Assembly (NCBI GenBank): GCA_903916565.1
Contig: CAIWXH010000229.1
Span: forward strand, 1-40,080
Direction of reading: 5' to 3'
From: an uncultured Oscillochloris sp.
Lineage (GTDB): Bacteria; Chloroflexota; Chloroflexia; Chloroflexales; Chloroflexaceae
DNA length: 40,080 bases
How positions within the stretch are numbered: the first letter of the stretch is position 1; every line of letters starts with the position of its first letter. Both the position numbers and the translations under genes were made by a program. Positions 245-40,080 of the stretch are shown one piece after another. Below the pieces are notes generated by a model. It was given only the letters and a program-made list of their open reading frames with translations, searched no databases and was not told the origin of the DNA.

Positions 245-254
245 CTGGTTTTTT

Positions 255-287: not shown

Positions 288-307
288 TATCGTGATAGAG
301 GAACACT

Positions 308-1382: not shown

Positions 1383-1394
1383 GGGGAAAAAGAG

Positions 1395-2063
1395 ATGCAG
1401 GCGACACTCTATAACCAGGGCGGCGAGCAGATCGGCTTGATCGATCTCAATGACTATCTCTTCGGCGTGACGCCGAATGTGCCCCTGATGCACCAGTATG
1501 TGGTGATGCAGGCCGCGAACAAGCGCCAGGGCACCCAGAGTACCAAAGGGCGCGGCGAGGTCAAAGGGAGCACGCGCAAGATTTACCGCCAGAAGGGCAC
1601 TGGCCGGGCACGTCAGGGGACGATCCGCGCCCCTCACCACATGGGCGGCGGTATTGCTCACGGCCCGCACCCACGCTCGTATCGGCTCAATATGCCGCGC
1701 AAGATGCGCCGCCTGGCGGTGCGCTCGGCGCTTTCAGCCAAGTACGCCGCAGCGGCGATTCGCTTTGTCGATAGCTTGGCCTTCGAGCGGCCGCGCACCA
1801 AAGATGCGCTGGCCTTGCTTGCGGCGCACGGCTTTACTACCGGCAAGACGCTCATCGTTGTGGACAGCAAGAACGAGCAGAACCAGATTGTCCAGCGCTC
1901 GGCCAACAATCTGCCGCACGTCAAGACGCTGCTTGCCAGCTATCTGAATGTGCGCGATCTGCTCCAGTTCGACCATATCATCCTACCCCAGGCCGCGATC
2001 GCGGTGATCGAAGGGATCCTGGGGAACGGCGCCGGCGCGGCGGCGGCGAGCGAGGAGGAGTAG
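1395..2063 (+). CDS. rplD: 50S ribosomal protein L4
   Basis: 222 aa, ...[41 protein letters not shown]...; short Ala/Glu-rich C-terminal tail. Confidence 0.96.
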
Positions 2064-2068
2064 CCCCG

Positions 2069-2353
2069 ATGCCTACGCCGCATGAGATTATCATCCGCCC
2101 GCTGATCACCGAGAAGAATACCGGCCTGATGGTCTACAACAAGTATTCTTTTGAGGTAATCCGCGCCGCGTCGAAGCCCGAGATCAAGCAGGCCGTCGAG
2201 ACAATTTTTAGTGTCTCGGTTTCCAAAGTTCATACCATGCACGTGCGCGGTAAGCTCAAGCGCCGTGGTCGCGAGGTGGGCTACACCCGCGAGTGGAAAA
2301 AGGCGATCGTCACCCTTGTTCCGGGCGACCGGATCGAGATCTTCGAGAGCTGA
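2069..2353 (+). CDS. rplW: 50S ribosomal protein L23
   Basis: 94 aa, [14 protein letters not shown]...NKYSFEV; operon position. Confidence 0.96.
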
Positions 2354-2362
2354 GGTAGCACA

Positions 2363-3190
2363 ATGGGTGTCCGTAAATACAAGCCAACCTCGGCTGGTCG
2401 CCGCAATATGTCGGTTTCGACCTTCGAGGATCTGACCAAGAAGCGGCCAGAGCCTGGTCTGATCGAGCCGCTGCGGAAGCGGGCTGGTCGCAATAACCGG
2501 GGTCGGATTACCACGCGCCACCGGGGCGGCGGTCACAAGCGCTTCTATCGCATCATTGACTTCAAGCGCAACAAACTCGGCGTTCCGGGTAAGGTGCAGG
2601 CGCTTGAGTACGATCCTAACCGCACCGCGCGCATTGCCCTGATCGCCTATGCCGACGGCGAGAAGCGCTATATTCTCGCGCCGGTCGGGCTGAAGGTCGG
2701 CGACGCGATCAGCAGTGGCTCCGACGCCGACATCCGTCCAGGGAATGCGCTGCCGTTGAGCGCCATCCCGCTCGGTACCCAGATTCATAACCTTGAGCTG
2801 GAGATCGGTCGTGGCGGCGTGCTGGTGCGTAGCGCTGGCACCTCGGCCCAGTTGATGGCGAAAGAGGGCGACTACGCCACCGTGCGTATGCCCTCGGGCG
2901 AGATGCGCCAGATTCATGTGCGCTGCATCGCCACCATCGGCCAGGTTGGCAACGCTGACCATCAGAACGTGCGCCTCGGCAAGGCCGGTCGCTCGCGCTG
3001 GCTGGGTCGGCGGCCTACGGTGCGCGGTACGGTGATGAACCCCCGCGACCATCCCCACGGCGGTGGCGAGGGCCGTGCGCCCCGTGGTATGAGTACCCCC
3101 AAGACGAAATGGGGCAAGCCCGCCCACGGTGTCAAGACCCGCAACAATAAGCGCACGGATCGCTTCATTGTGCGGCGGCGGAAGGTCTAA
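2363..3190 (+). CDS. rplB: 50S ribosomal protein L2
   Basis: 275 aa, [14 protein letters not shown]...[17 protein letters not shown]. Confidence 0.98.
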
Positions 3191-3191
3191 A

Positions 3192-3209
3192 GGCGCAGCA
3201 TGCTGCGCC
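3192..3209. repeat. Perfect 18-nt palindrome GGCGCAGCATGCTGCGCC, 2 nt after the rplB stop
   Basis: Self-complementary 9+9 nt centred on GCATGC. Related copies occur at 8361-8378 and 13759-13778, each right after a stop codon. Confidence 0.8.
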
Positions 3210-3229
3210 CCAACAACTGAATGGTCTTT

Positions 3230-3272
3230 GGCGATAGGTCGTAAATCCCCTCTAGGGATATGACCTATCGCC
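3230..3272. repeat. Nested stem-loop in the rplB-rpsS spacer
   Basis: GGCGATAGGTC (3230-3240) pairs with GACCTATCGCC (3262-3272). An inner stem ATCCC (3245-3249)/GGGAT (3255-3259) sits inside. The arms carry the CGATAGG word that recurs elsewhere in the window. Confidence 0.7.
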
Positions 3273-3303
3273 TAAAGGCCGTAGCCCGTAGGAGGCATTA
3301 GCG

Positions 3304-3591
3304 ATGTCCCGTTCCTCGAAGAAAGGCCCTTACGTTGACATCAGGCTGCTCGAGCGCGTGGAGGACATGAACCGCGCCAGCGAGAAGCGGGTGTTGCGAA
3401 CGTGGTCGCGTGACTCGACCGTCTTCCCGCAGATGATCGGCCACACGATTGCTGTCCACGACGGTCGCCGCCATGTGCCGGTGTACCTCACCGAGAATAT
3501 GGTCGGCCATAAGCTCGGCGAGTTTGCGCCCACCCGGCTCTTCCGTGGCCACGGTGGCAAGAAGGCCGACAAGCGCGGCAAAATGAAGTAG
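3304..3591 (+). CDS. rpsS: 30S ribosomal protein S19
   Basis: 95 aa, [12 protein letters not shown]...[30 protein letters not shown]. Confidence 0.97.
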
Positions 3592-3652
3592 CGACGCCCG
3601 GGGCTCATACCCGGTGCGGCCCGTCCAGGTCGCGTACACAACTCGTGATGTG

Positions 3653-3661
3653 TGGTACAAT
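3653..3661 (+). promoter_or_regulatory. Candidate extended -10 promoter element (TGgTACAAT) inside the rpsS-rplV spacer
   Basis: The sequence TGTGGTACAAT resembles TGTGGTATTAT at 11542-11552. No clear -35. Motif evidence only. Confidence 0.3.
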
Positions 3662-3723
3662 GGTCGGGTTTGCTATGCGCGCCGCACCTGCCGGTAGCGC
3701 CCGGAGCGCAGACGAGTAAAACG

Positions 3724-4065
3724 ATGGAAGTCAAAGCTATAACGCGCTTGGTGCGAATCTCGCCGCTGAAGGTTCGCCTGGTGATGGATGTGGTGCGGGG
3801 CATGCCAGTTGCGAAAGCCCTGGCAACGCTGAACTACATGCCGCAGAAGGCAGCTCGCGAGGTGTCCCGCACGATCAAGTCGGCGTCGGCCAATGCCGAG
3901 CACAATTTCGACCTTGACCCCAATGTCTTGGTGGTCAAGCGCATTTTCGCCGACCAGGGTCCGGTTTTGAAGCGCTCTATGCCGCGAGCTCGCGGTATGG
4001 CCAATAAGATCCGTAGGCCGACGACCCACATCACGGTGATCGTTGACGACGGATCAGACTACTAG
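3724..4065 (+). CDS. rplV: 50S ribosomal protein L22
   Basis: The track ORF starts at 3652, but the conserved L22 N-terminus [20 protein letters not shown] begins at the ATG at 3724. Confidence 0.93.
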
Positions 4066-4088
4066 GCTGCCAGCAGTAGGAGGCACTC

Positions 4089-4817
4089 TTGGGACGCAAG
4101 GTTCATCCGATCGGCTTTCGCCTCGGCTACATCAAAGACTGGCAGTCGAAGTGGTTCGCTGAAGGCGACGCCTACACTACCCAGCTCCACGAGGATCTTG
4201 CGCTACGCAAGCTCATCGCGAAGGAACTCGCCAACGCCGGTGTGTCGCGGATTGAGATCGAGCGCTCGGCCAATAAGGTCGAGGTGACGGTCTTCACCGC
4301 TAAGCCCGGTATCGTGATCGGCAAGCGCGGCGCAAATGTCGATCTGCTCAAGAACGCCCTTGAGAAGCGCACGGGCAAGAAGATCAAGCTGAACATTCAG
4401 GAGATCCACCAGCCCGAGCTTGATGCCCAGCTTGTGGCTGAGAGCATCGGCGAGCAGATTAACAAGCGCGTTAGCTACAAGCGTGCGATGAAGCAGGCTG
4501 TCCAACGCGCCCGGCGCCTGGGTGCTCAGGGCGTTCGCATCAAGTGTTCAGGGCGCCTTGGTGGGGCCGAGATGTCGCGCATCCAGAGCGAGAGCGAGGG
4601 CCGCGTGCCGCGCCATACGCTCCGTGCCGATATTGACTACGCCACGGTTCACGCTCACACCACCTACGGACGGATCGGCGTCAAGGTCTGGATCTACAAG
4701 GGCGAGGTCTTCCCTGATAAGCTTGGGAAGGCGCTGGTCGAGCAGCAGGTGAGCGCCCCTGAGCGCAACGAGCGTAGCGAGCGTCGGCCAAGGAGGGGCG
4801 ACAATGCTTCTTCCTAA
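4089..4817 (+). CDS. rpsC: 30S ribosomal protein S3
   Basis: 242 aa, TTG start after [30 protein letters not shown]...; basic/acidic C-terminal extension. Confidence 0.96.
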
Positions 4818-5247
4818 GCGCACGAAGTATCGCAAGATGCAGAAGGGCCGCAGCGAGGGTCTCTCGTATCGCGGCAACAGTGTGGCCTTCGGTGACTACG
4901 GTCTGATGGCGCTTGAGCCAGTCTGGATCACCAGCCGTCAGATTGAGGCCGCCCGCCGCACGATTACGGGCTACATCAAGCGCGGTGGCAAGGTCTGGAT
5001 TCGGATCTTCCCCGACAAGCCGGTGACCCAGAAGCCCGCCGAGACCCGCATGGGTGGCGGTAAGGGCAGCGTCGATCACTGGGTGGCGGTGATTAAGCCT
5101 GGGCGCGTGCTGTTCGAGCTCGGTGGCGTAAAAGAGGATGTCGCCATTGAGGCCCTGAAGCGAGCGGCCCAAAAGTTGCCGATCAAATGCAAGATCATTG
5201 GGCGCGATGATGTTGAGCCGGAGGTGAGCAGTGGCGACAGCGAGTGA
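4804..5247 (+). CDS. rplP: 50S ribosomal protein L16
   Basis: 147 aa, [16 protein letters not shown]...; overlaps the rpsC end by 14 nt. Confidence 0.97.
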
Positions 5248-5431
5248 ACTGCGAACCCTTGATGAGACGAGGCTGCGCGACCAGATCAAGGGCTACTACG
5301 AGGAGTTGTTTAACCTGCGCTTCCAGAAGGTCACTGGACGCCTGACCAACACAGCCCGTTCGCGCCAGGTGAAGAAGGAGATCGCGCGGATTAAGACCGT
5401 TCTGCGCGAGCGCGAACTGGGGCAGGAGTAG
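5231..5431 (+). CDS. rpmC: 50S ribosomal protein L29
   Basis: 66 aa, [27 protein letters not shown]; operon position. Confidence 0.93.
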
Positions 5432-5436
5432 CAACT

Positions 5437-5712
5437 ATGAGTGAGATCGAGCAGCCGCGCACCGTTCGCAAGACCCAGAAGGTCGGGCGTGTGGTGAGCG
5501 ATAAGATGACGAAGACGGTGGTGGTGGCGGTGGATTATCTGAAGCCGCACCCGCTCTACCGGAAGATTATCCGCAAGACGAGCAAGTTCCACGCCCACGA
5601 CGAGGAGAACACCTGCAAGGTGGGCGATGTGGTACGTATCGAAGAGACGCGCCCCCTGAGTCGCACCAAGCGCTGGCTTGTGATCGAGATCGTTCAGCGC
5701 GGCGAGGAGTAA
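5437..5712 (+). CDS. rpsQ: 30S ribosomal protein S17
   Basis: 91 aa, [42 protein letters not shown]. Confidence 0.96.
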
Positions 5713-5717
5713 CGGCC

Positions 5718-6086
5718 ATGATCCAGCCCCAGACCCGCCTGAAGGTTGCCGATAATACCGGCGCCAAAGAGATTATGTGCATCCGCGTCCTTGGTGGCTC
5801 GGTGGTGCGCTATGGCCGCGTTGGCGACGTGATTGTTGCCAGCGTTAAGCATGCCACCCCCGGCGGCACCGTGAAAAAGGGCGAGGTCGTGCGTGCGGTG
5901 ATTATTCGCACGGCCAAGGAGTACGGTCGTTCCGACGGCTCACATATTCGCTTCGATGATAACGCCGCCGTGATTATCGGTAAAGAGAATAATCCACGCG
6001 GCACCCGTATTTTTGGCCCGGTCGCCCGTGAACTCCGCGAGAAGCAGTTCATGCGGATTGTGTCCCTGGCGCCTGAGGTACTGTAA
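5718..6086 (+). CDS. rplN: 50S ribosomal protein L14
   Basis: 122 aa, [27 protein letters not shown]. Confidence 0.98.
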
Positions 6087-6133
6087 GGCCTTCGGCCCAG
6101 TCGCGGGCCGGGCGAGTAAGAGTAGGTGTCCTT

Positions 6134-6466
6134 ATGCACGTCAAGACTGGTGACGAAGTCCTCGTCATCGCCGGGAAGGATAAGGGGCGGAAAGGCAAAA
6201 TTAAGCAGTCGATTCCTACACGTGGGCGTGTGGTGATCGAAGGGCTGAACATTGCCAAGCGCCACATGAAGCCTCGTGGCCCCGGCAAGCCCGGCGGGAT
6301 CATCGACATCGAGGCGTCACTCGATGTCTCGAACGTGATGCTGATTTGCCCCAGTTGCGGTCGTGCCGCGCGCACGGGTCACCGCTTTCTGGAAGAGACC
6401 GACCATAAAGGCCGCCCGCGTAAGGTGCGCTTCTGCAAGGCCTGCGACGCGGCAATCGATAAGTAG
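6134..6466 (+). CDS. rplX: 50S ribosomal protein L24 (C4 zinc-ribbon form)
   Basis: 110 aa, MHVKTGDEVLVIAGKDKGRKGKI...; C-terminal CPSCG...CKAC, as in Thermus-type L24. Confidence 0.95.
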   Translation: MHVKTGDEVLVIAGKDKGRKGKIKQSIPTRGRVVIEGLNIAKRHMKPRGPGKPGGIIDIEASLDVSNVMLICPSCGRAARTGHRFLEETDHKGRPRKVRFCKACDAAIDK

Positions 6467-6526
6467 GCCACGCCCTCAGGGCCGGCGACCGCCGCATGAG
6501 CGTCGCCAAGCCCCTGGAGAAGAACT

Positions 6527-7069
6527 ATGCCAGTCCGTTTGCGCGAAAAGTATCAGCAGGAAATTGTCCCTGCCTTGGTGCAGGAGTTCAAGTTTACGTC
6601 GGTGATGCAGGCACCCCGCCTGAGCAAAATCGTCGTGAATGTGGGCGTCGGTGAGGCCGTACAGAACTCGAAGGCACTGGATGCTGCCGTCGGTGACATC
6701 ACGATCATCACGGGCCAAAAGCCGGTGGTCACCAAGGCCCGCAAGTCGATTGCGGCCTTCAAGCTGCGCGAGGGGGTGCCGATTGGGGTCATGGTTACCC
6801 TGCGCGGTGATCGGATGTACGACTTTTTTGATCGGCTCGTCCACTTAGCCCTTCCCCGGCTCCGCGATTTTCGTGGGGTCAGTCGGCGCTCATTTGATGG
6901 GCGCGGCAACTATAGTCTGGGTTTGCGCGAGCAGATCGTCTTCCCCGATATTGACTACGATAAGATTGATAAGCTTCGGGGTCTTGAGGTCGTGATCGTG
7001 ACGACCGCCACCGACGACGCGCAGGCGTATGTCCTGCTGAAGCGCCTTGGGATGCCCTTTAAGGATTAG
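6527..7069 (+). CDS. rplE: 50S ribosomal protein L5
   Basis: 180 aa, [17 protein letters not shown]...[20 protein letters not shown]. Confidence 0.97.
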
Positions 7070-7306: not shown

Positions 7307-7379
7307 CAGGTGTACGCTTGAATAGGCACATGGCGCATGAGCCGGCTCTGGCCGGCATCCGAGGTGTGAGGAGGCTCTT

Positions 7380-7778
7380 GTGAGCGTTAATGATCCCATC
7401 GGCGATATGCTGACGCGCATCCGTAACGCCTGCATGGCGCGGAAGATTGTCGTAGACATTCCTGCGTCGAAAATGAAGCTGGCGATTGCGGAAATCCTGA
7501 AGCGCGAGGGGTTCATCAGGGAATACAGCGTGGTCGAGGGCAAGCCCTGTAGCACCATTTCGATCACGCTCAAGTATACGTCGGATCGGCGACCGGCCAT
7601 TACCGGCCTACGCCGCGTTAGCAAGCCTGGCTTGCGTATTTACAGCGGGCGCGACGAGATTCCTCGGGTGCGCGGTGGCCTGGGGTTGAGCATCCTCTCG
7701 ACGCCGAAGGGCGTGCTGGCTGGGCACGATGCCTGGCGCGAGCACGTAGGCGGCGAGGTGCTCTGCTATGTCTGGTAG
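7380..7778 (+). CDS. rpsH: 30S ribosomal protein S8
   Basis: 132 aa, GTG start, [14 protein letters not shown]...GGEVLCYVW. Confidence 0.97.
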
Positions 7779-7795
7779 GGCACAGGGAGGCTGCA

Positions 7796-8359
7796 ATGTC
7801 GCGTATTGGTAAGAAACCCATCACCCTGCCGAAGGGTGTGGATGTGACTGTGGGCGAGGGGAACTTGGTTACGGTCAAGGGGCCGAAGGGCACGCTGATC
7901 CAGCAACTTCACCCTGACATGGTGATCGCGCATGAGAGTGGCGATCTCATCGTCAATCGGCCCTCGGACGGTAAGCTGCATAAGGCGCTCCACGGCCTGA
8001 CCCGCACGCTGATCAGTAATATGGTCGTCGGGGTCACTGATGGCTGGCAGCGCGCCCTTGAGATTAACGGGGTCGGCTACCGTGCGGTGCTGGAGGGGAA
8101 GACGCTGGTGTTGAGCCTCGGCTTCTCGCATCAGGTGCGCCTCGAACCGCCTACGGATGTGCAGTATGTGGTTGGTGAGCGCAAAAGCGCCAACGACCCG
8201 CTGGCCCTCTTCGTGCGCGGGATTGACAAGCAGGTTGTTGGTGAGCAGGCGGCCAAGCTCCGTGGCCTGCGCCCGCCCGAACCCTACAAGGGCAAGGGTG
8301 TCAAGTACGCCGAAGAGAAGATTCGCCGTAAGGCCGGTAAGGCTGGTAAGGCGAAGTAG
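7796..8359 (+). CDS. rplF: 50S ribosomal protein L6
   Basis: 187 aa, MSRIGKKPITLPKGVDV...PEPYKGKGVKY. Confidence 0.97.
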   Translation: MSRIGKKPITLPKGVDVTVGEGNLVTVKGPKGTLIQQLHPDMVIAHESGDLIVNRPSDGKLHKALHGLTRTLISNMVVGVTDGWQRALEINGVGYRAVLEGKTLVLSLGFSHQVRLEPPTDVQYVVGERKSANDPLALFVRGIDKQVVGEQAAKLRGLRPPEPYKGKGVKYAEEKIRRKAGKAGKAK

Positions 8360-24820: not shown

Positions 24821-26296
24821 TTACGGATTATCGCGGGACACCCGCTCGGCGACGGCGCGCCCCGAGAGCAGTACGAGCGGGATGCCGCCACCAGGGTGGG
24901 TGCCTCCGCCGACGAAATATAGGCCACGCACACCTTGGGCGCGTAGGGGTGGGCGCATAAAGGCCGCAAAGGGATTATTTGACGCGAGGCCGTAGATGGC
25001 ACCTCCGGCGGCGTTGTAGCGCCCCTCAAGGTCGGCGGGCGTCCAGGTTTGTGCGTAGGTGATGTGCTGGCCGAGTCCGGTGAGGCCCATACGTTCGAGC
25101 TTGGCGACCACCAACTCGCGGTACGGTGCCGCCTCGCGTGTCCAGCATACGCGCTCGGTGAGCGCGGGCGCGTTCACCAGGACGAAGAGGTTCATGTGGC
25201 CGGGGGGCGCATGCGCTGGGTCGCTTACGCAACTGGCGGCAACGTAGACGGTCGGGTCGGCGGCGGGGACGCCGTGGTCAAAGATCGCGGCGAACTCGCG
25301 GGGGTAGTCGTGGCTGAAGAAGATGTTGTGGTGGGCCAACTGGGGGTAGCTGCGCTTGACGCCCAGGAAAAGGATAAAGCCGCTGCACGAGGGTTCAAGA
25401 CGCGCTAAATGCCGTGCCGTACGCGCTTGGCCGGGAATGAGGGTCGCGTAGGCGTAGCGCGGGTCGGCGTTGACGACCACTTGGCTGGCGGATAGCGCTT
25501 CGCCGCAGGTCAGACGTACGCCGTGGGCCACCCCGTGCTGATAGAGAATTTGGGCGACCGGGGCGTTGAGGCGCAGCTCGACGCCAAGCTCGGTGCAGAG
25601 TTGGGCGAGGGCCACGGCCAGACCGTACATGCCGCCGCGCACGTACCAGCCGCCCTCGGCAAATTCGATGTAGCTGATTACATTGAAGGTGGCGGGCGAG
25701 CGGTAGGGCGACGAGCCATTGTAGGTGGCGTAGCGGTTAAAGATCTGGCGCAGGTACGGGCTGTGGAAGAAGGCGCGCACGGCGGCATCAACGCTGCGGA
25801 GGGCGTCAATGCGCGGCCCATCGCGCAGCAGCCGTGGGGTAAGCAGCTCGCGCAGCCCGTCGAAGGGTTTGAGCAGAAAGTTATCGGCGACGGCATCGTA
25901 GATCGTCGCGGTGTGGGCGAGGAAGCGGAAAAAGCCCGGTACGTCGCTCGGACTGAGGCGCTCAACCGCTTGAATGAACTGCGGCAGGCGCTGCCATGCG
26001 TTGAAGGTGGTGCCGTCGGGCCAGGTGTAGCGGCAGGTGGGCTCGATCTGATCGATCTGGAGGTAGTCGGCGGTGCGGCGTCCCGCTGCGGCGAACAGTT
26101 CGTCAATCACCCAGGGCATAGTGAGCAGCGAGGGGCCGGTATCGAACGTGTAGCCCTGGGCGCTGAGCAGGTTGAGTTTGCCGCCTACGCGCTCGTTCTG
26201 CTCAACGATGGTGACGCGGCGCCCCATGGCGGCAAGCCGGATGGCGGTGGCGAGGCCGCCTAAGCCTGCGCCAACGATGATCACTCGATCAGACAT
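24821..26296 (-). CDS. Phytoene desaturase-family FAD-dependent oxidoreductase (CrtI/CrtD-like)
   Basis: 491 aa. N-terminal dinucleotide fold VIIVGAGLGGLATAIRLAAMGRRVTIVEQNERVGGK. C-terminal LYFVGGGTHPGGGIPLVLLSGRAVAE is typical of the CrtI family. The exact substrate cannot be assigned. Confidence 0.85.
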   Translation of the reverse strand: MSDRVIIVGAGLGGLATAIRLAAMGRRVTIVEQNERVGGKLNLLSAQGYTFDTGPSLLTMPWVIDELFAAAGRRTADYLQIDQIEPTCRYTWPDGTTFNAWQRLPQFIQAVERLSPSDVPGFFRFLAHTATIYDAVADNFLLKPFDGLRELLTPRLLRDGPRIDALRSVDAAVRAFFHSPYLRQIFNRYATYNGSSPYRSPATFNVISYIEFAEGGWYVRGGMYGLAVALAQLCTELGVELRLNAPVAQILYQHGVAHGVRLTCGEALSASQVVVNADPRYAYATLIPGQARTARHLARLEPSCSGFILFLGVKRSYPQLAHHNIFFSHDYPREFAAIFDHGVPAADPTVYVAASCVSDPAHAPPGHMNLFVLVNAPALTERVCWTREAAPYRELVVAKLERMGLTGLGQHITYAQTWTPADLEGRYNAAGGAIYGLASNNPFAAFMRPPLRAQGVRGLYFVGGGTHPGGGIPLVLLSGRAVAERVSRDNP

Positions 26297-26320
26297 ATCG
26301 CAGTCCTATACTGGTCGTGA

Positions 26321-26431
26321 AGCCGGGGGGCTGAAGCCCCCGGCTCTTGGGTGCGAAGCCTGCCTTCGCAGGCTCGTTGAGGCCGCGCAGGCGGCCTTCG
26401 TACCCCGTAGCCCGTGGCTTCAGCCACCGGG
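26321..26431. repeat. Cluster of four consecutive GC-rich hairpins sharing the GAAGCC/GGCTTC word
   Basis: Stems at 26321-26345, 26357-26374, 26380-26397 and 26411-26431, with tetraloop-like CTTC, GCAG and TTCA loops. TGAAGCC or CGAAGCC appears four times, once inverted. Confidence 0.7.
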
Positions 26432-26477
26432 CGGACGCTCAACAACCCCTGTAGGATTGCTATATAGCTCACACAAC

Positions 26478-26504
26478 GGAGGGACGCCCAGGGGGCGTCC
26501 CTCC
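26478..26504 (-). terminator. Terminator hairpin 26 nt downstream of the cpaF-like stop
   Basis: GGAGGGACGCC/GGCGTCCCTCC form an 11-bp perfect stem. The minus-strand reading is followed by GTTGTGTG. Confidence 0.55.
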
Positions 26505-26529
26505 GCACTTAACGCTTTGGGCTGTGCGC

Positions 26530-28014
26530 CTACCAGCCCTTTTTCTGGCCGGGGACTTGGGCGCCGAAGATGCTGGGCGGCAGTTTGAAGCCGTGGGCTT
26601 CGAGGCGGGGCGTGAAGCGCGGGCGCACGCCGGTCGGCTTCATCTCGCACTGGATCTTGCCCTCAGGGGTCTTGCCCAAGATTTCGAGCTTGAAGATGTC
26701 CTGGAGCACCACCGTCTCACCTTCCATGCCCTGCACCTCGGTGATGTAGGTGACCTTGCGCTGGCCGTCATCAAGGCGCGACTGCTGGACGATGATATCA
26801 ATGGCCGAGGCGATCTGCTCGCGAATAACCTTGAGCGGCAGATCCATACCCGCCATCATCGACATCGTCTCCATACGGGCGAGGGCGTCGCGGGGAGTAT
26901 TGGCGTGGAGCGTGGTGAGTGAGCCGTCGTGGCCGGTGTTCATCGCCTGAAGCATGTCGAGCGTCTCGCCACCGCGACACTCGCCGATGACGACACGCTC
27001 GGGGCGCATACGTAGCGAGTTAATCACCAAGTCGCGGATCTGGACGCGGCCACTGCCGTCAACTTCGGCGGGCTTGGCCTCAAGGCGCACGACGTGATCC
27101 TGACCGAGTTGAAGCTCGGCGCTGTCCTCAATCGTGACGATGCGCTCGTCTTCGGGGATGAAGTTCGAGAGCACATTGAGCAACGTCGTCTTGCCGGAGC
27201 CAGTCCCACCGGCGACGACAATATTCAGGCGGCTGACCACGCACGCCCGCAGGAACTCGGCCATCTCGGGGCTCATCGAGCCGAAGCGCACAAGGTCGTC
27301 AATCTTGAGCTTATTCTTCGAGAACTTACGGATGGTGATCGTGCAGCCATCAATCGCGCATGGCGGAATAATCGCATTCACGCGGGAGCCGTCGGGCAGA
27401 CGGGCGTCCACCATCGGCCACTTGCGGTCCACGCGGCGACCGAGGGGGCGGATGATGCGGTCAACGATTTTCAGCACATGCTCGTCGTTGGCGAAACGGA
27501 TGGCGGTCAGTTTTAGCTTGCCCTTCGACTCGACGTAGACCCGGTTCGGGCCATTGACCATGACCTCGGAGATCGCATCGTCGTTGAGGAGTTGCTGGAT
27601 GGGGCCGAAGCCCATCAGTTCATCGCAGACCATGGTGAAGAGTTGCTTGACTTGTTCGCCAGGGAGACTGACGCCCGCCTGCTGATAGACGCGGGCGAAG
27701 CGTTCCTGGAGCAACTTTTCGGTTTCAGGCGAGCGCTTGAGTTCATTCTGATTGCCGAGCGAGGCTTGGATGCGGTCAACGCACCAGAGCGAGAGATCGA
27801 GGATTTGCTGCTGGCCGTTCGGCTGCGCGGCCTCCTCGAAGGGGATGCTGCTAATCGGCTGGCTGCGCGGCTCCGCGCTGCCTGGGGCGGCGGGTGCGGC
27901 GGGTGGCTGGGGCGGTGGTGCGATGGGGGTCAGGGTTGGGATGGCGACTGGGGCTATCGCTACGGGTTCGTTTGGCTGGGGGGAGCCGCCGCCAAGACGT
28001 TTCAGCAGAGACAT
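26530..28014 (-). CDS. cpaF: CpaF/TadA-family type II/IV secretion ATPase with a Pro/Ala-rich N-terminal linker
   Basis: 494 aa. Walker [16 protein letters not shown]; Asp box and Walker [13 protein letters not shown]...[14 protein letters not shown]; His box [23 protein letters not shown] lies upstream. Confidence 0.9.
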
Positions 28015-28056
28015 AGGATTATGCTTCCTTTACGCGACGGGTGGAGCGTTCTGGAG

Positions 28057-29442
28057 CTACCCGAGTTTAACGAAGTACGCCTCGCAGGCGCGGTCGATCA
28101 GTTCCTTGGACATCGAGGGTGGCAGATTGCGGTACTTCGCCTCGTCAAGAATCTGGTCGCAGAGATCGCGCGGGTGGCAGGCGCGCAGGTCACGCCCGAC
28201 CTTCATATAGTGTTCCTGGAGGAGGTGGCGCAGCCCTTCATCGCTATACGGGATCTTTTTGCCCTTGCAGACAAGTTGAAAGATCGAGCGAAACTCGGCG
28301 GGCGAGGGGTTGGGCACCTCGATCTTGTGGCGAATACGGCGCAGAAAAGCGTCGTCCACCAGGTCTTTCGGGTTGAGATTGGTCGAGAAGATAATCAGGA
28401 CATCGAAGGGCACCTGGATCTTCTTGCCAGTCTGGAGGGCGAGGAAGTCAACCTTCTTCTCAAGGGGGACGATCCAGCGGTTGAGCAGATCCTGGGGGCG
28501 GCACTTCTGGCGTCCAAAGTCGTCGATCAGGAAAATGCCGCCGTTGGCCTTGAACTGAAAGGGTGCCTCGTAGACCTTCGAGCCGGGATCAAAGACCAGT
28601 TCAAGTTGCTCCAGGCTCAACTCGCCGCCCACGACAACCCGAGGGCGTTGGCAGACCAGCCAGCGCGCATCAGGGAAGGTCACAACCGTGCGAGTGCCTG
28701 CGGTGGGGCCGCCGAAAGGGGTGCTGCTCTCGGCGTGGCCAACCTCGTGTTGCTTGACGATCTGATGGTTGAGCGGGTCGTAAAACTTGATAATCTGCCC
28801 GTCGATCTCAATCGCGTAGGGGATGATTACATAGCCGCCAAGCATGTTTGAGATGCCCTCGGCGATGGTCGTTTTCCCGTTGCCTGGGGGGCCGTAGAGG
28901 AAGAGCGAACGGGCCGAGTTTGCAGCGGGGCCGATCTTGTCGAGCATCCGCTCGTTGACAATAATATGGTCGAAAGCCTTACGGATGGCGGCTTGGTCGA
29001 TGACCATATCGCCGATCTGTTGGCGCTTGCACATCTCAAGATACTGGTCAAGGGTCACGGGGGCGGGGCCAGCGTACTGTGACCGCTCGAGAATTTCGTT
29101 GACCTTGAGGCGGCCTTTATTGGTAATGATGTACTGGAATGAGCGCTCGCTGAAGCCACCATCGGCACCGATAATATCGGTGAACTCCTCAAGTTTGAGG
29201 AACTCCAGGATCTTGTCGATGACGCCCAAGAAGGGCAGTTTGGTTACTTCTTCAAGGCGCTGGCCGGTAATTGCGCCGGTGAAGTAGATCACCTTGGCGA
29301 TCAAATCGGTGAGGAAGCCCATCGTCAGCCCGGTTTCGGCGACGGTGGTGGGCTGCGTGGGGACATCGGGCAGCGGGGTGCTGTCACGCGCAGCGCTGGC
29401 CGCCGCCTGAGCGGTGGCAATTTCGTGCAGCCGGAATGACAT
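28057..29442 (-). CDS. AAA+ ATPase of unassigned family (about 190-aa unknown N-domain plus a single AAA+ module)
   Basis: 461 aa. Walker A LFLYGPPGNGKTTIAEG; Walker B GGIFLIDDFGRQ; sensor-1 and Arg region IIFSTNLNPKDLVDDAFLRRIRHKIEV. RBS GAAGGAGG. It ends 42 nt upstream of cpaF. Confidence 0.8.
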   Translation of the reverse strand: MSFRLHEIATAQAAASAARDSTPLPDVPTQPTTVAETGLTMGFLTDLIAKVIYFTGAITGQRLEEVTKLPFLGVIDKILEFLKLEEFTDIIGADGGFSERSFQYIITNKGRLKVNEILERSQYAGPAPVTLDQYLEMCKRQQIGDMVIDQAAIRKAFDHIIVNERMLDKIGPAANSARSLFLYGPPGNGKTTIAEGISNMLGGYVIIPYAIEIDGQIIKFYDPLNHQIVKQHEVGHAESSTPFGGPTAGTRTVVTFPDARWLVCQRPRVVVGGELSLEQLELVFDPGSKVYEAPFQFKANGGIFLIDDFGRQKCRPQDLLNRWIVPLEKKVDFLALQTGKKIQVPFDVLIIFSTNLNPKDLVDDAFLRRIRHKIEVPNPSPAEFRSIFQLVCKGKKIPYSDEGLRHLLQEHYMKVGRDLRACHPRDLCDQILDEAKYRNLPPSMSKELIDRACEAYFVKLG

Positions 29443-29552
29443 TGGGCCTCCTTCTGCAAAGCTGTGCTGAACTTCTGAGCGCCGCTGGCAGGGCGCGGTC
29501 GCCTGCCATGATCAAATCGCGTATGGATTTCCAGACTGCACAGCCACTAGTA

Positions 29553-29581
29553 AGTATAAACCTGCCCACGGGTGATCGCAA
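29553..29581 (-). promoter_or_regulatory. Near-consensus sigma70-type promoter for the AAA+/cpaF pair
   Basis: On the minus strand: TTGCGA (29581-29576), 17-nt spacer, TATACT (29558-29553). This is about 105 nt upstream of the AAA+ ATG. Confidence 0.55.
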
Positions 29582-29615
29582 GGTAGGAAGGTCTTTTTAC
29601 GCGCAGAGACAGCAA

Positions 29616-29640
29616 CGCGGGGGAGGTTCACTCCCCCGCG
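29616..29640 (-). terminator. Terminator-like hairpin after the TPR gene
   Basis: CGCGGGGGAG/CTCCCCCGCG form a 10-bp stem with a 5-nt loop, 20 nt past the stop. The minus-strand reading is followed by TTGCTGTCTCT. Confidence 0.5.
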
Positions 29641-29659
29641 CTGTGAGGTGCGCCTAGCG

Positions 29660-30502
29660 CTATTCCTCGATATTCTCGTCCTCGTCGCCCATATCCTGGT
29701 CGATCTCTTCGAGGCCCAACTCCTCTTCGTCGTCGTTGCCGCTGAAATCCTCGTCGGCGGGGTCGGTATCATCGGCCCCGTCCTCATCGTCCAGCACGTC
29801 CTCGTACTCTTCGTAGCGCAGACTAGAGACGTAGGCGGCACCTTCGCCAAGCTTGCCGGGGAAAGAGATGCGGTTGCGCTGGCTGGGGTCCTGGTAGGTT
29901 TCGCGGATGAGCAGGCGCACCTGGCGCGGGTCGTTCTGGGCAATGGCGGCGAGGTAGCGGTTGCCGCCGCCGATCAGCTCGGCGAGGCGCTGGCCGAGTT
30001 TGGGCTCAAGCCGCCCAACGACGGTGCCGTCGGCGTCGATGACGTAGACGTTGCGGCCCTCGACGCGGAAGGTCATCTTCTCGCCGGTGACGAGGGCGTC
30101 CACGGCGGGGCTGCGGGGCACATCAATCAGGGCCGTGATCGCGGTGCGCCCGGTCTCGGTGATGAACATGCGGAGGTCAACCTGCTGGCGGGCCTTGCGG
30201 TTGACCTGGCCGCTCCCGTAGCCACGAGCGAGCAGGGCTTCGAGGCGGGCGACATTCTTGCGCCCGATGGAGTTGGTCGGGATGAGGCGCAGGGTGTGCA
30301 GATAGGCTTCGTGCGACTCGGTGAACTGGCCGAGTTCCATCAGCGCCTTGCCGATCCGATTGTAGGTGTCGGTATCTTCGCCGAGCTGGAGAATCTGCCG
30401 GTTGGATTCGAGTGCCTCGTCCCAGCGGTTCATCGCCGCCAGCTCGACGGCCTTTTCCTGAAGCTTGCGCTTGATGCGCTGCTTTTCGTCTTGCTTCGCC
30501 AA
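29660..30502 (-). CDS. TPR-repeat protein with an unknown central domain and a poly-acidic C-terminal tail
   Basis: 280 aa, TTG start 8 nt after AAGGAGG. N-terminal TPR-like helices (WDEALESNRQILQLGEDTDTYNRIGKALMELGQFTESHEAYLHTL). The last roughly 50 aa are D/E-rich (EEYEDVLDDEDGADDTDPADEDF...DEDENIEE). Confidence 0.75.
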   Translation of the reverse strand: MAKQDEKQRIKRKLQEKAVELAAMNRWDEALESNRQILQLGEDTDTYNRIGKALMELGQFTESHEAYLHTLRLIPTNSIGRKNVARLEALLARGYGSGQVNRKARQQVDLRMFITETGRTAITALIDVPRSPAVDALVTGEKMTFRVEGRNVYVIDADGTVVGRLEPKLGQRLAELIGGGNRYLAAIAQNDPRQVRLLIRETYQDPSQRNRISFPGKLGEGAAYVSSLRYEEYEDVLDDEDGADDTDPADEDFSGNDDEEELGLEEIDQDMGDEDENIEE

Positions 30503-34316: not shown

Positions 34317-35305
34317 TTCGCTCTGTCGCGCCGGGTGACCTCTGGTCGCTCCGCCGCAAGCCGCGTAATCAGGTGGTGCTCTACACCGAGGGGCTGTTGG
34401 CCCAGGCACATCGGCCCGCTTGGTTCGCGCTGCGCTGTCTGCTGCAGGGCAATGGCCGCGATCACAGCACGGTGGTTTACCAGGAGCGCGGGGCGGGGGC
34501 GCTTATCCAGGCCCAGGGGCGCGGCGGGCGACCCGAGCAGGATATTGTCTACCTCGCGACGGCGGGCGCGCAGGTGGTCGGGTTGCCCAGCGACTATGAG
34601 CTGTGGTATCGCCTGCTTGAGCGGATCAGCATCAACGCGGGTCAGCATCAGGTGCAGCGTCTGTACGCGGCACCACCGCGCCACCAGAACGAGCTGCGCG
34701 AAATCTTCCGCCAGATGGGCTTTCAGGCGTTTGCCCACGCCACGCTCTTGCAACTCTCTGGCCCCGACTGGGATCAGGGCACCACGCTGGCCCCGATGCG
34801 CGTTCAGTCGCGCCGTGACCACTGGGCGATTCACAAGCTTTATGGGGCGACCACGCCCCATACGGTGCAACTCGCCGAGGTGCGGAACGCCCGCCATTGG
34901 GCGCTGCCGCTGACGCAGCGCTGGGGCGGCCCGCGCCGTATGGCCTGGGTAGTTGGCCCCGATGATGATCTGGCCGCCTACCTGCGGCTCGTCAGCGGCC
35001 CGGCGGGGCACGTCTTTAGTCTGCTGATTCGCTCGGACACCCGCGAGACGGCGGTAGACGTGTTGCGCTTTGGGCTGGCCCAACTCAGTGACACGCGGCC
35101 TGTCTATCTGCTGCTGCGCGAATACCAGGGCGAACTGCTCGCCCCCGCGCAGGATCTCGGCTTTCAGCCGATTGGCGAACAGGCGCTCCTCGTGAAGCAA
35201 ACCGTCGTGCCGGTGCGCCGTAGGTTGCTCGTCCCATCCCTAGAGCCAAGCCGCGATGCGCGGGTGCCTGCCTCCAGAATCACTGCGCCGAGAGAGGAGA
35301 CCTAA
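34313..35305 (+). CDS. Hypothetical protein, possibly tandem GNAT-like acetyltransferase folds
   Basis: 330 aa, with ATGA overlap to pdxT. Two segments end in ...[12 protein letters not shown] and ...[12 protein letters not shown], reminiscent of GNAT C-terminal motifs. The assignment is weak. Confidence 0.5.
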
Positions 35306-36999
35306 TGGTTGATCGTCGTGAAGTCACTAACGACATTGAGCTACTGCTCAGTGCGCTGCCGCCCCACATTACGGCGTCAATTCGTGATGGCGCGGATGAG
35401 GCCGCCGATCTGCTTGAAATCGTGATGGATCTTGGGCGGCTGCCCGAGGCGCGCTATCGCGGGAAGGAGCGCTTTCTCAGCGACCGCGAAGTGACGCTTG
35501 AGGAAATCAACACGGTGATGGCGCAGATTGGCGAGTTTGGCGAGGATAATCGGGCGGGCATCCCGCGCACGCTGCACCGCATCTCGGCCATTCGCAACCG
35601 CAAAGGCATCGTGATCGGCCTCACCTGCCGCGTCGGGCGGGCGGTCTTTGGCACGGTCGCGATTATCCGCGACCTGGTCGAGACCGGGAAGAGCATTCTG
35701 CTGCTGGGCAAGCCCGGCACCGGCAAGACGACGCTGCTGCGCGAGACGGCCCGTGTGCTGGCCGAGGAGCTGCGGAAGCGGGTTGTGATTGTGGACACCT
35801 CGAACGAGATTGCGGGCGACGGCGACATTCCGCACCCCGGCATTGGGCGGGCGCGCCGCATGCAGGTGCCGCGCCCCGCCGAGCAGCACGCGGTGATGAT
35901 TGAGGCGGTCGAGAACCACATGCCCGAGGTGATCGTGATTGACGAGATCGGCACCGAGCTTGAGGCGATGGCGACGCGCACGATTGCCGAGCGCGGCGTG
36001 CAGCTTGTTGGAACGGCCCACGGCAACACGCTCGACAACCTGATGGTCAACCCGACGCTTTCGGATCTGGTGGGCGGCATTCAGGCGGTGACGCTGGGTG
36101 ACGAGGAGGCCCGTCGCCGGGGCACGCAGAAGACGGTGCTTGAGCGCAAGGCGCCGCCGTCGTTCGAGGTGCTGATCGAGATTCAGAGCTGGGATAAGGT
36201 GACGGTCTACGATGATGTGGCGGCGGCGGTGGATGCGATTTTGCGCGGCGAAGATCCGCCCGCCGAAGAGCGCTCACGCGATGCGGATGGCAATGTGGTC
36301 GCCGAGGCGGTGCATCGCGAGGTGATTGACGCCCCGGCGCTGGGGCGGCGCAGCGGCAGCCAGCGCGGCGGTGAGCGGCTGAATCCCCGCGCTGGCGCTG
36401 CGCGCCCCGGCGAAGTGATGGGCACCGCTGGCCCGCGTCTGCGTGAGCGCACGAGCGTCGGCGCAAGCACCGGCAGCCCGATTGCAGCGCAGCCGACGGC
36501 CCCGACGCAGCGCATCTTCCCCTTTGGCGTCAGCCGCAACCGGCTCGAGTCGGCCATCGAGCGCCTGCACGTCCCGGCGGTGATTGTGCGCGAGATGAAG
36601 GACGCCACGCTGGTGATGACGCTCAAGAACTACTATCGCCAGAGCGCCCAGCGCCTGCGCCAGGCCGAAGAGCAGGGCGTCCCGGTCTATGTGCTGCGGA
36701 ATAACACGATTACGCAGATGGAGCGCCAGTTGGCCCACGTCTTCAACCTGCGTGAAGTTGATGCCGATGAGAGCATGCCATCGTCGCGCCGGAATGATGA
36801 TAGCAGCGTGGTCGAGGAGGCGCTGCTTGAGGTCGAGACGGCGATTACCCAGGTGATGAACGGCGAACGTACCACCGTCGAGTTGGCGCCGCGCAGCAGC
36901 TATATTCGCAAGCTGCAGCATCAGATGGCCGACCGCTACAACCTGCGCTCGGAGAGTCGGGGCGAGGAGACGAACCGGCGGGTGAAGATTTTTCGCTAG
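35305..36999 (+). CDS. SpoIIIAA/Ycf45-like AAA ATPase with a C-terminal R3H domain
   Basis: 564 aa. Contains [16 protein letters not shown] (Walker A), VIVIDEIGT (Walker B) and [10 protein letters not shown]. The C-terminus [31 protein letters not shown] is R3H-like. The ATG overlaps the upstream TAA. Confidence 0.85.
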
Positions 37000-37001
37000 G
37001 C

Positions 37002-37090
37002 CAAGGTTTCAGGTTTCAGGTTTCAGGTTGAGCGCATCAGCAAGCGCTGCAAGTACCAGAACGGTAAAGCTGCTCCGAACCTTGTCTAAG
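37002..37090. repeat. Dispersed about 90-nt intergenic element, copy A, starting with (AGGTTTC)x3.7
   Basis: The 60-nt core 37031-37090 matches 38747-38806 at 58 of 60 positions. CAAGGTT (37002-37008) is complementary to AACCTTG (37078-37084). The heptamer array spans 37004-37029. Confidence 0.85.
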
Positions 37091-37120
37091 CGCATGCTCC
37101 CCTGATTGGTCTCAATCGAG

Positions 37121-38708: not shown

Positions 38709-38806
38709 GACAAGGGTTCAGGTGCCGGGCTTCAGGTTTCAGGTCAAGCGCATCAGCAAGCGATGCAAGTACCAGAACGGTAAAGCTGCTGCGAACCTTG
38801 TCTAAG
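38709..38806. repeat. Dispersed intergenic element, copy B
   Basis: GACAAGGGTTC (38709-38719) is complementary to GAACCTTGTC (38793-38802) with a 1-nt bulge. Degenerate heptamers (GGTTCAG, GCTTCAG, GTTTCAG) precede the core 38747-38806, which matches copy A at 58 of 60. Confidence 0.85.
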
Positions 38807-38813
38807 AGCGCCT

Positions 38814-39785
38814 ATGCCCCCCTCAATCACCGCTGTACCTGGAATCACCGTCGGCCACGCCCACGACCTTGCGGCGCTGACCGGCGTCACCGTCGTGCTG
38901 ACGCCCCATGGCGCGGTGGGCGGCGTTGATGTGCGCGGCGGCGCCCCCGGCACCCGCGAGACGGATCTGCTCGCCCCCGAGGCTGCGGTGCAGGAAGTGC
39001 ATGCCGTGGCGCTCTGTGGCGGCAGCGCGATGGGCCTCGCCGCCGTGACGGGCGTGGTGGATTGGCTGCGGGCGGGCGGCTTTGGCTTTGATGTGGGCGT
39101 CACGCGGGTGCCGATTGTGCCTGCCGCTGTGATCTTCGACCTGTCAATCGGTGCCAGCGACCGCTTCCCCGATGCGGCGATGGGCTACGCCGCCTGTGTC
39201 GCCGCCGGTATGTCAGTTGAAGAGGGCTGCCTCGGCGCGGGGGCGGGGGCCACGGTGGGCAAAATCCTTGGCATGCCCTGGGCGATGAAGAGCGGCCTCG
39301 GCACCTGGAGCGAGACGCTGCCCGATGGCACGACCGTGGGTGCGCTGGTGGTGGTCAATGCGTTCGGCGATGTGCGCTACGAGGCGGGGCCGCCCATCGC
39401 TGGGGTGCGCGACCCCGCGACGGGCGGGCTGGCGAACACGATGGCGCTGCTACGCGCCCCACAGTCGCCACCAAGCTTCGGCGGCGGGCGCGAGGGTGCC
39501 AACACGACCATCGCCGTCGTCGCCACCGACGCCACGTTGACGAAGGCCGAGGCGCGCAAGCTGGCCCAAATGGCCCAAGACGGCTTGGCGCGCACCATCA
39601 GCCCGTTGCACACGCCCTTCGACGGCGATAGTGTGTTTGCGCTGGCGACTGGTTTGCGCCCGGCGCCGCCAATGGTCATCCTGGGCAGCATCGCCGCCGA
39701 GGTGCTGTCCAGGGCCGTCGAGCGGGCGGCCCTGGCGGCGACGGGGCTAGGCGGGCTGCCTGCCGCCCGCGACCTTCACCGATAG
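38814..39785 (+). CDS. DmpA/S58 (P1) family aminopeptidase-like protein
   Basis: 323 aa, ITAVPGITVGHAHD...TGVTVVL...GGVDVRGGAPGTRETDLL...NTTIAVVATDA, typical of the L-aminopeptidase/D-esterase family. Confidence 0.85.
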   Translation: MPPSITAVPGITVGHAHDLAALTGVTVVLTPHGAVGGVDVRGGAPGTRETDLLAPEAAVQEVHAVALCGGSAMGLAAVTGVVDWLRAGGFGFDVGVTRVPIVPAAVIFDLSIGASDRFPDAAMGYAACVAAGMSVEEGCLGAGAGATVGKILGMPWAMKSGLGTWSETLPDGTTVGALVVVNAFGDVRYEAGPPIAGVRDPATGGLANTMALLRAPQSPPSFGGGREGANTTIAVVATDATLTKAEARKLAQMAQDGLARTISPLHTPFDGDSVFALATGLRPAPPMVILGSIAAEVLSRAVERAALAATGLGGLPAARDLHR

Positions 39786-39836
39786 CCGATAGCCGATAGC
39801 CGATAGCCGATAGCCGATAGCCGATAGCCGATAGCC
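39781..39836. repeat. Perfect heptanucleotide tandem array (GATAGCC)x8
   Basis: I counted eight uninterrupted units. The first unit contains the TAG stop (39783-39785) of the peptidase gene. The array ends 20 nt before the next ATG. Confidence 0.95.
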
Positions 39837-39855: not shown

Positions 39856-40080
39856 ATGCCCGTTGCCACGATACCGTTGTCCACCCGCCCCGTCACGCAT
39901 CCGTCCGTCGTCTTCGCCAAGCGGCGCGGCCAGATGATCCCCCTGACGGCGATCATCCTGCCGGTCATCCTCGCCTTCACGCTGCTGGTGGTGGAAGTGT
40001 CGGAGCGCTGGCTGGAGGTGGCGATGCTGGAGGACGCGCTGCAAGCGGCCACGCGCTCGGCGGTGCAGCGCCTCGACTAC
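39856..40080 (+). CDS. TadE/TadG-like (Flp-pilus assembly / pseudopilin-like) protein, N-terminal fragment running off the window
   Basis: The ATG at 39856 lies 6 nt after CAGGAG. The sequence ...KRRGQMIPLTAIILPVILAFTLLVVEVSERWLEVAMLEDALQAATRSAVQ shows the N-terminal hydrophobic helix typical of TadE/TadG-like N-terminal domains. The frame is open to the window end. Confidence 0.6.
   Translation, partial: MPVATIPLSTRPVTHPSVVFAKRRGQMIPLTAIILPVILAFTLLVVEVSERWLEVAMLEDALQAATRSAVQRLDY

Follow-up and report, generated by a model that had tools for sequence, protein, structure and literature searches.

A second CpaF/TadA-type ATPase conserved beside an uncharacterised AAA+ ATPase in Chloroflexia

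A 40,080-nt stretch of DNA from an uncultured Oscillochloris sp. (contig CAIWXH010000229.1, hereafter the window) carries on its minus strand a gene for an AAA+ ATPase of an uncharacterised family, followed by a gene for an ATPase of the CpaF/TadA family. CpaF/TadA is the bifunctional motor ATPase of Tad (type IVc) pili, which are usually described as one-motor machines. Sequence comparison identifies the CpaF of the window as a paralogue, here termed CpaF2, of the motor encoded in the tad locus, and this paralogue has been kept across relatives. The explanation that we favour, and hold tentatively, is that CpaF2 may act as an accessory motor of the neighbouring Tad machine, with the AAA+ protein as its dedicated regulator or remodeller. 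We prefer it because the motifs of CpaF2 are intact, because CpaF2 is a paralogue of the tad-locus motor, and because the linkage of the two genes has been kept despite turnover of the genes on either side.

Results

The AAA+ and CpaF2 genes stay together while their neighbours change

The AAA+ gene (28057..29442, minus strand; 461 amino acids), defined by open reading frame (ORF) translation and profile searches, precedes the CpaF2 gene (26530..28014, minus strand; 494 amino acids). Between them is a 42-nt spacer (28015..28056, minus strand) in which the scan found no terminator-like site and in which an AAGGAAG ribosome-binding site lies 8 nt ahead of the CpaF2 ATG. The original prediction, made from the letters of the window, had described an orphan CpaF in a private two-gene operon with an unclassified AAA+ protein; an ORF check confirmed both reading frames and the 42-nt gap.

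An AAA+ gene followed by CpaF2 on the same strand, at gaps of roughly 10-210 nt, was found at 11 loci including the window, and the adjacency is thus conserved in related genomes. Within Chloroflexia, where nine of the ten other genomes sampled have the pair, the linked loci include those of the window, a related Chloroflexales contig (L001), an Oscillochloris metagenome-assembled genome (MAG; L004), O. trichoides DG-6 (L086), Chloroflexus sp. (L087), Roseiflexus sp. (L005), a Herpetosiphonaceae MAG (L006) and Kallotenue papyrolyticum (L084). The pair is also present in three other Chloroflexota MAGs (L010, L058 and L083), whose AAA+ proteins are 49-56% identical to that of the window. In a neighbour-joining tree the linked AAA+ proteins occupy a Chloroflexia clade and a small neighbouring group, and no member of the large Anaerolineae clade is linked. 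One lineage has conserved the adjacency; the wider AAA+ family has not.

The genes that flank the pair vary by locus and include TPR/MiaB, RuvA, histidine kinases, ClpB and a Ser/Thr kinase. O. trichoides has RuvA and a restriction/defence island, Kallotenue a histidine kinase and a Ser/Thr kinase, L001 a downstream ClpB, and L083 GAF histidine kinases. No tadB or tadC gene stands beside the pair at any of the 11 linked loci, and CpaF2 does not lie in a tad/cpa locus: the canonical tadZ/tadB/tadC set is missing from beside the pair in the window and in the 10 related loci. We found no tadB/C, tadZ, flp or prepilin peptidase gene anywhere in the window, in agreement with the original prediction that none flanks CpaF2. 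Literature searches on DUF6812, on AAA+/CpaF pairing and on orphan CpaF paralogues returned no description of the module.

A gene for a DUF6812 protein (PF20660) of about 100 amino acids lies directly upstream of the AAA+ gene in L001 (9666-10004), L005 (two copies, 7309-7614 and 7663-7974), L010 (3669-3971) and L083 (7627-7893), and was found only in loci that also have CpaF2. A promoter-like site precedes DUF6812 in all three of the DUF6812 loci checked. Judged from these arrangements, the ancestral module may have had three genes including DUF6812. As a part of the window module DUF6812 was rejected, the gene being absent from the window.

The L058 locus (103-6936), from an Anaerolineales MAG, encodes in order a hybrid histidine kinase/receiver (REC) protein, a TadZ-like REC-ParA protein, a REC-histidine kinase, the AAA+ protein and a CpaF that bears a receiver domain at its N-terminus. 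After the pair come genes for RNase P protein, YidC and Jag, and there is no tadB or tadC nearby. The TadZ-like protein aligns over its full length (E=2e-20) with the TadZ of the tad locus described next (L089).

CpaF2 is a paralogue of the tad-locus motor

On the related Chloroflexales contig JGI Ga0207864_1000015 (loci L001 and L089) the genes are arranged as in the window, an unknown gene followed by MiaB, TPR, AAA+ and CpaF genes. The AAA+ protein of this contig is 78% identical to that of the window, and the contig has a divergent TadE gene at a position and orientation equivalent to those of a gene at 39856 in the window. The tad locus there runs tadE (167 amino acids), tadE-like (450 amino acids), tadG-like (vWA, 882 amino acids), Kelch, rcpC/cpaB, tadZ (with REC+ParA architecture) and tadA (T2SSE, 466 amino acids). 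It is covered up to tadA, where the DNA ends, and tadB and tadC are expected to follow on the strength of PMC7332563. The locus agrees with the gene content reported for Chloroflexales genomes (rcpC-tadZABC, tadEEG and flp), in which there is no further pilus system (PMC7332563). On this contig the starts of tadA and of the AAA+ gene are about 18.6 kb apart.

The CpaF2 of the window is 54% identical to the TadA of L089, both proteins beginning with MSLLKR[LI]GG. TadA is slightly the closer of the two to Caulobacter CpaF (464 bits vs 416 bits for CpaF2). The CpaF2 orthologues across Chloroflexia share 61-88% identity among themselves and 53-60% with TadA. The description of the window copy as an orphan holds in that no tad genes flank it, and fails in that it is a paralogue about 10 kb from the probable start of a tad locus, whose tadA is seen in the relative. 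The original prediction had also allowed that a complete tad locus with a second cpaF would reduce this copy to a diverged paralogue with no partner dependence: the paralogy was found in the relative, and the conserved AAA+ linkage opposes the lack of partner dependence.

The start of the window's canonical tad locus is probably marked by the 5' end of a TadE/TadG-like pseudopilin gene at 39856..40080 (plus strand), about 10 kb from the pair and divergent from it. The claim that this is the only other Tad-like gene in the window stood; its family assignment is less secure, the TadE/G-type N-terminus matching PF13400 at E=0.0076, weaker than the cutoff. A homologue search with the 75-amino-acid TadE-like fragment found none. 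Eight perfect tandem CCGATAG heptamers (39779-39834) fill the DNA from the stop codon of the preceding S58 peptidase gene to about 20 nt before the ribosome-binding site and ATG of the 39856 gene. Lying there, the run could be an element of variable length that controls the first tad gene.

CpaF2 retains catalytic and platform-contact residues

Pfam and NCBIfam profile searches of both proteins, as suggested with the original prediction, assigned CpaF2 clearly to T2SSE (PF00437, E=4e-68) and placed the AAA+ protein in no characterised family. A phmmer search against the Protein Data Bank (PDB) aligned residues 9-477 of CpaF2 with residues 22-490 of the solved Caulobacter CpaF chain (9E24; E=2e-123). 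CpaF2 has an N-terminal MSLLKRLGG peptide, a Pro-rich disordered region, a three-helix N-terminal domain 1 (NTD1), NTD2 and a C-terminal domain (CTD). It thus resembles CpaF/TadA (Caulobacter CpaF; PDB 9E24, 8RJF) in full-length homology and in the layout of a disordered NTD0, NTD1, NTD2 and CTD, and differs in lying outside the tad operon as a second copy that adjoins an AAA+ gene instead of tadZ/tadB/tadC.

We mapped CpaF2 residues by alignment to Caulobacter CpaF, taking the residue roles, including contacts with a CpaG/CpaH-type platform, from Hohl et al., section 12 (PMC11300603). The retained catalytic motifs are Walker A K287 and Walker B E357 (Caulobacter numbering), the Asp box and the His box, and R217, R223 and R347 are kept as well. 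The retained platform-contact motifs are the hinge-1 glycines GFGP (Caulobacter G147/G149), the Loop-8 Asp (Caulobacter D208) and the central loop DGSG, which aligns with EGSG 331-334 of the Caulobacter protein. With these residues CpaF2 looks like a catalytically competent motor able to bind a platform.

Against the PilT/PilU model TIGR01420 CpaF2 scored 52 bits, the cutoff being 319. Its best NCBIfam model is TIGR03819, the 'conjugal transfer-associated' TadA family, at 326 bits and below the cutoff of 373; the canonical TadA of L089 scored 350 bits with the same model, also below the cutoff and above CpaF2. The neighbourhood associated with TIGR03819 includes a helicase gene, and none was found beside the pair.

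An AAA+ protein outside the characterised families

Searches of Pfam, NCBIfam, PADLOC and the PDB found no characterised member of the family to which the AAA+ protein belongs, which bears out its original description as unclassified. The match of the protein to Pfam AAA (28 bits) covers only the P-loop region. The protein reached no curated cutoff in NCBIfam or PADLOC, and its Pfam matches are P-loop-local or sub-threshold. No full-length model of the named families (MoxR, sigma-54 activators/bacterial enhancer-binding proteins (bEBPs), Mg-chelatase ChlI/BchI, classical AAA, IetA/IteA) matched at cutoff. The sub-threshold Pfam matches are Sigma54_activat, Mg_chelatase, AAA_5 and bpMoxR, and a profile search against PDB sequences gave P-loop-level matches only. 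A defence system is not supported as the role of the pair: PADLOC run on the two proteins, the neighbouring TPR protein and a 237-amino-acid neighbour gave only P-loop-local IetA/TRIP13 matches.

An N-terminal winged-helix-like domain (residues ~30-120) is joined by a GPAPV linker to the AAA+ core. The core motifs, whose roles are assigned by analogy, are Walker A GPPGNGKT, Walker B IDDFGRQ, sensor-1 STN and FLRRIRHK; they are invariant or nearly so in 41 diverse and 32 closer homologues. Invariant in the 41-member alignment are the GPAPV linker, Walker A GxxGxGK, DxRW...RP...GGEL, KANGG-x4-IDDFGRQ, LLNRWIVPLE, STN (sensor 1) and FLRRI (arginine-finger region). By these motifs and by the fold match to AAA+ rings the protein is a member of the AAA+ superfamily.

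In the AlphaFold model the N-terminal winged-helix-like domain is confident and the beta-hairpin inserts are poor. The best Foldseek match in the PDB is 8P49, an uncharacterised hexamer (Q8U0N8) of Pyrococcus furiosus (E=4e-9, probability 1.0), followed by MCM subunits, NtrX/PspF/FleQ, BchI and NorQ (E about 1e-4 to 1e-3). By its modelled fold the protein belongs with the AAA+ proteins that have a pre-sensor-1 hairpin, and by analogy with 8P49 it would form a hexameric ring. Q8U0N8, too, carries its AAA+ ring together with a flexible N-terminal domain and lacks a Pfam assignment; the two differ in sequence (14-15% identity), with TM-scores of 0.26-0.36 that are low because the model is only partly confident. 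8P49 was not among the top PDB matches of the profile sequence search. The segment from Walker B to sensor 1, LLNRWIVPLE...VPF...STN, resembles the corresponding region of MoxR and bEBPs. Compared with MCM, bEBPs (PspF/NtrX), BchI and MoxR/NorQ, however, the protein has DD and not DE in Walker B, its winged helix is N-terminal, and it has no vWA partner, no GAFTGA sigma-54-contact loop and no C-terminal DNA-binding domain.

TadZ/CpaE, the ParA/MinD-like localisation ATPase, normally precedes tadA. The AAA+ protein is likewise a P-loop NTPase encoded immediately upstream of a CpaF gene, but its fold class is not ParA/MinD (SIMIBI) and its architecture differs. It has no ParA, CbiA or AAA_31 Pfam match, and the earlier statement that the upstream partner is not a ParA/MinD-type TadZ was upheld. 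A genuine REC+ParA TadZ is encoded in the tad locus of the relative (L089), and a TadZ-like protein next to the L058 pair.

The AAA+ family is large: a word-index search gave 8000 matches and an exhaustive search 3754 clusters (50% identity, E<=1e-3), 809 of them at E<=1e-30, and nearly all matches of the exhaustive search are full-length. Some members are fused to N-terminal FHA, HDOD or PAS domains, which suggests that the AAA+ protein is a signal-responsive ATPase. Stand-alone AAA+ genes of Anaerolineae have glycerophosphodiester phosphodiesterase (GDPD), GH3, GT2, RecJ, ClpX and Obg genes as neighbours. In most Anaerolineae, at about 46 loci (among L009-L081), a GDPD gene follows the stand-alone AAA+ gene at a median of 7 nt, as at L069 (2848-3600), and is often followed in turn by a GH3 glycosidase gene. 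At 10 Anaerolineae loci the gene after the AAA+ gene encodes a receiver-domain protein. Neither the Anaerolineae neighbourhoods nor those of Myxococcota (patatin, DHH, aminotransferase and alcohol dehydrogenase genes) gave a functional clue.

The pair as a transcription unit

A sigma-70-type promoter-like site, TTGCGA-17-TATACT (29553..29581, minus strand), lies about 110 nt upstream of the AAA+ start codon, which is preceded by a ribosome-binding site, GAAGGAGG. The strict motif TTGCNN-N17/18-TATACT occurs once in the 40-kb window with both strands scanned. A consensus promoter scan is weak by itself (4 sites in 8.5 kb vs 1.6 +/- 1.2 expected in shuffles). We compared, for the window and 8 related loci, the 300 nt that precede the module's first gene. 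Exactly one TTGNNN-N16-18-TANNNT site was present in each of the nine, at -70 to -139 from the first gene and usually in the form TTGC..-17/18-TATACT. In the window and one Oscillochloris MAG, TTGCGA-N17-TATACT is common to both and the surrounding DNA has diverged. The near-consensus promoter of the original prediction was thus recovered by the scan and has an equivalent single site in 8/8 related modules.

Hairpins stand on both sides of the pair. Upstream, a GC-rich terminator- or insulator-like hairpin without a U-tract (29611..29645, minus strand; -38.6 kcal/mol, z -4.8 vs shuffled sequence) directly follows the stop codon of the TPR gene. Downstream, 26 nt after the CpaF2 stop, a 12-bp GC-rich hairpin followed by UUGUGUG resembles a terminator (26478..26504, minus strand; z -5.1). 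A cluster of four short GC-rich hairpins (26300..26445, minus strand; z -4.1) separates it from a gene of the phytoene-desaturase/CrtD family. Folding z-scores and the family match confirmed the terminator-like hairpin, hairpin cluster and carotenoid-desaturase-family gene reported earlier. The cluster matched no Rfam family, gave only chance-level CRISPR direct-repeat matches to its palindromes on both strands, and has no similar copy of >=25 nt elsewhere in the window. An E-value scan of 26250-29700 against Rfam likewise gave chance-level matches only, and so no known riboswitch or small RNA in the leader or trailer.

Because the promoter-like site is conserved in relatives and hairpins flank the pair, an autonomous transcription unit is supported, short of proof. 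The layout, promoter-like site and hairpins of the window support the prediction of an autonomous two-gene operon, AAA+ then CpaF2; the comparative promoter data bear out that part of the original prediction.

The remainder of the window

A TPR protein gene (29660..30502, minus strand; 280 amino acids with an acidic tail) is a syntenic neighbour outside the operon. It lies upstream of the pair in the window, L001, L005 and L087. As a third component of the module the TPR protein was rejected: it is absent upstream in L004, L006, L084 and L086, and the hairpin and promoter separate its gene from the pair.

Otherwise the window consists of housekeeping genes. Its first 24 kb contain a ribosomal-protein/SecY/Adk/RpoA block and fab genes. 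On the right lie a MiaB-like radical-SAM gene, pdxS/pdxT, a SpoIIIAA/R3H ATPase gene, tmk and an S58 peptidase gene, with pdxST, tmk and the S58 peptidase occupying 32-39.8 kb. The SpoIIIAA-like gene (35305-36999), between pdxT and tmk, encodes 564 amino acids comprising a SpoIIIAA-like P-loop ATPase, a PTPase-like domain and an R3H domain; the same order is found on a contig carrying the window's own genes. A 90-nt repeat is present in two copies that are 90% identical (37004-37093 and 38720-38809), each starting with AGGTTTC-type heptamer repeats and each just upstream of a plus-strand gene, tmk (37162) and the S58 peptidase gene (38814). The repeat had no Rfam match at the gathering threshold, nor did any other part of the window.

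Discussion

In the explanation that we favour, CpaF2 would dock onto the TadB/TadC platform that canonical TadA uses and would work there as an auxiliary motor or an alternative one, for example retraction-biased or used under particular conditions. The AAA+ protein would respond to signals by controlling how CpaF2 is assembled, docked or exchanged. The interaction of the two proteins, the use of the Tad platform by CpaF2 and a role in retraction or motility are all steps that we infer. The L058 locus speaks for this explanation: the pair adjoins a gene for a TadZ-like REC-ParA protein, and the CpaF2 there bears a receiver domain.

Type IVa pili have separate extension and retraction ATPases, PilB and PilT, that act on one common platform. 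The present case is similar in that two paralogous hexameric T2SSE-family ATPases apparently serve one pilus machine, the second being encoded away from the core locus. It differs in that CpaF2 is outside the PilT family and keeps N-terminal domains that PilT lacks; a retraction role for CpaF2 is hypothetical.

Several observations weigh against an accessory motor with a dedicated regulator. About 65 Anaerolineae loci among roughly 80 homologous loci have the AAA+ gene without an adjacent CpaF and among housekeeping genes, as do Thermoflexia (L085) and Myxococcota. In Kouleothrix aurantiaca (L007), the one exception to the adjacency among the Chloroflexia loci, a gene for a 358-amino-acid protein with no family match (1383-2459) follows the AAA+ gene in place of CpaF. 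Because about 65 of the roughly 80 homologous loci are unlinked, the function of the AAA+ family does not require an adjacent CpaF, and the AAA+ protein is not intrinsically a pilus protein. Its Walker B is DD, not DE, so that hydrolysis may be slow or regulatory, and its AlphaFold model is of moderate confidence (mean pLDDT 70). CpaF2 for its part shares the domain layout of TadA, without a PilT-like truncation, and NCBIfam models cannot separate the two. Finally, proximity to a tad locus was observed only for the window and the L001 lineage; there is no tad locus within +/-10 kb of the pair in O. trichoides, Kallotenue or Chloroflexus sp. (L087).

The alternative that survives best, which we consider doubtful, is that a duplicated TadA landed beside an independent AAA+ gene in the ancestor of Chloroflexia and that the two products have since taken part in unrelated processes under a shared promoter. 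The size of the AAA+ family (3754 clusters) is in keeping with this, as are its mostly stand-alone genes beside such neighbours as GDPD, GH3, GT2, RecJ and ClpX, the uninformative contexts in Myxococcota and the Kouleothrix AAA+ gene with no CpaF downstream. Against it, the two genes have stayed adjacent in at least three orders of Chloroflexia although the genes on both sides have been replaced completely. Three distant Chloroflexota MAGs also have the pair, with two-component genes nearby in two cases and a TadZ-like gene in one; DUF6812 occurs only where both genes are present, the gaps are short, and the shared promoter is conserved.

We think it improbable that the two ATPases form a cytoplasmic machine independent of pili and of any TadB/C platform, acting on nucleic acid or protein in, for example, DNA uptake or transfer or in unfolding. 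Such a machine would fit the lack of a platform gene beside the pair (0/11 linked loci), the winged helix of the AAA+ N-domain and the nucleic-acid-associated rings (MCM, bEBPs) that follow 8P49 among the fold matches. It would also fit the 'conjugal transfer-associated' name of the best NCBIfam model of CpaF2, but TIGR03819 does not discriminate, tad-locus TadA scoring 350 bits and CpaF2 326, both below the cutoff. CpaF2 has moreover kept the Loop-8 and central-loop residues that contact a CpaG/CpaH-type platform, the L058 pair lies beside a TadZ-like gene, and the copies in the window and L001 are near a tad locus.

That CpaF2 is a redundant or condition-specific spare, isofunctional with TadA and expressed from another promoter, with the AAA+ protein merely co-expressed, for example as a chaperone, has little credence with us: its 54% identity to TadA, shared architecture and MSLLKR[LI]GG peptide, intact motifs and separate promoter are as expected of a backup, yet the CpaF2 orthologues form a group of 61-88% identity across orders that is distinct from TadA, a pattern that suggests a role of its own under long-term selection more than a redundant copy left to drift.

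The accessory-motor reading can be taken a step further, to a version that is a long shot in our estimation: filamentous gliding Chloroflexia would run their Tad pili with two dedicated motors, the TadA of the tad locus and a CpaF2 that is loaded, exchanged or switched by the signal-responsive winged-helix AAA+ ring as a 'motor-exchange factor'. If true, this would be the Tad counterpart of PilB/PilT and would explain surface motility by a pilus class thought to be without a retraction ATPase. Tad systems normally have no dedicated retraction ATPase (PMC11300603), and in Chloroflexales Tad pili are the sole pilus system and have been proposed to drive gliding (PMC7332563). The mechanism of Tad retraction and the gliding of Chloroflexales with Tad pili are open questions (PMC7332563, PMC11300603), and CpaF2 with its AAA+ neighbour offers two defined genes in which motor specialisation or regulation can be tested. 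The nearest solved structure to the AAA+ family is itself of uncharacterised function, and the module would offer the first functional handle on a family of more than 3,700 clusters (50% identity) in Chloroflexota, Myxococcota and beyond.

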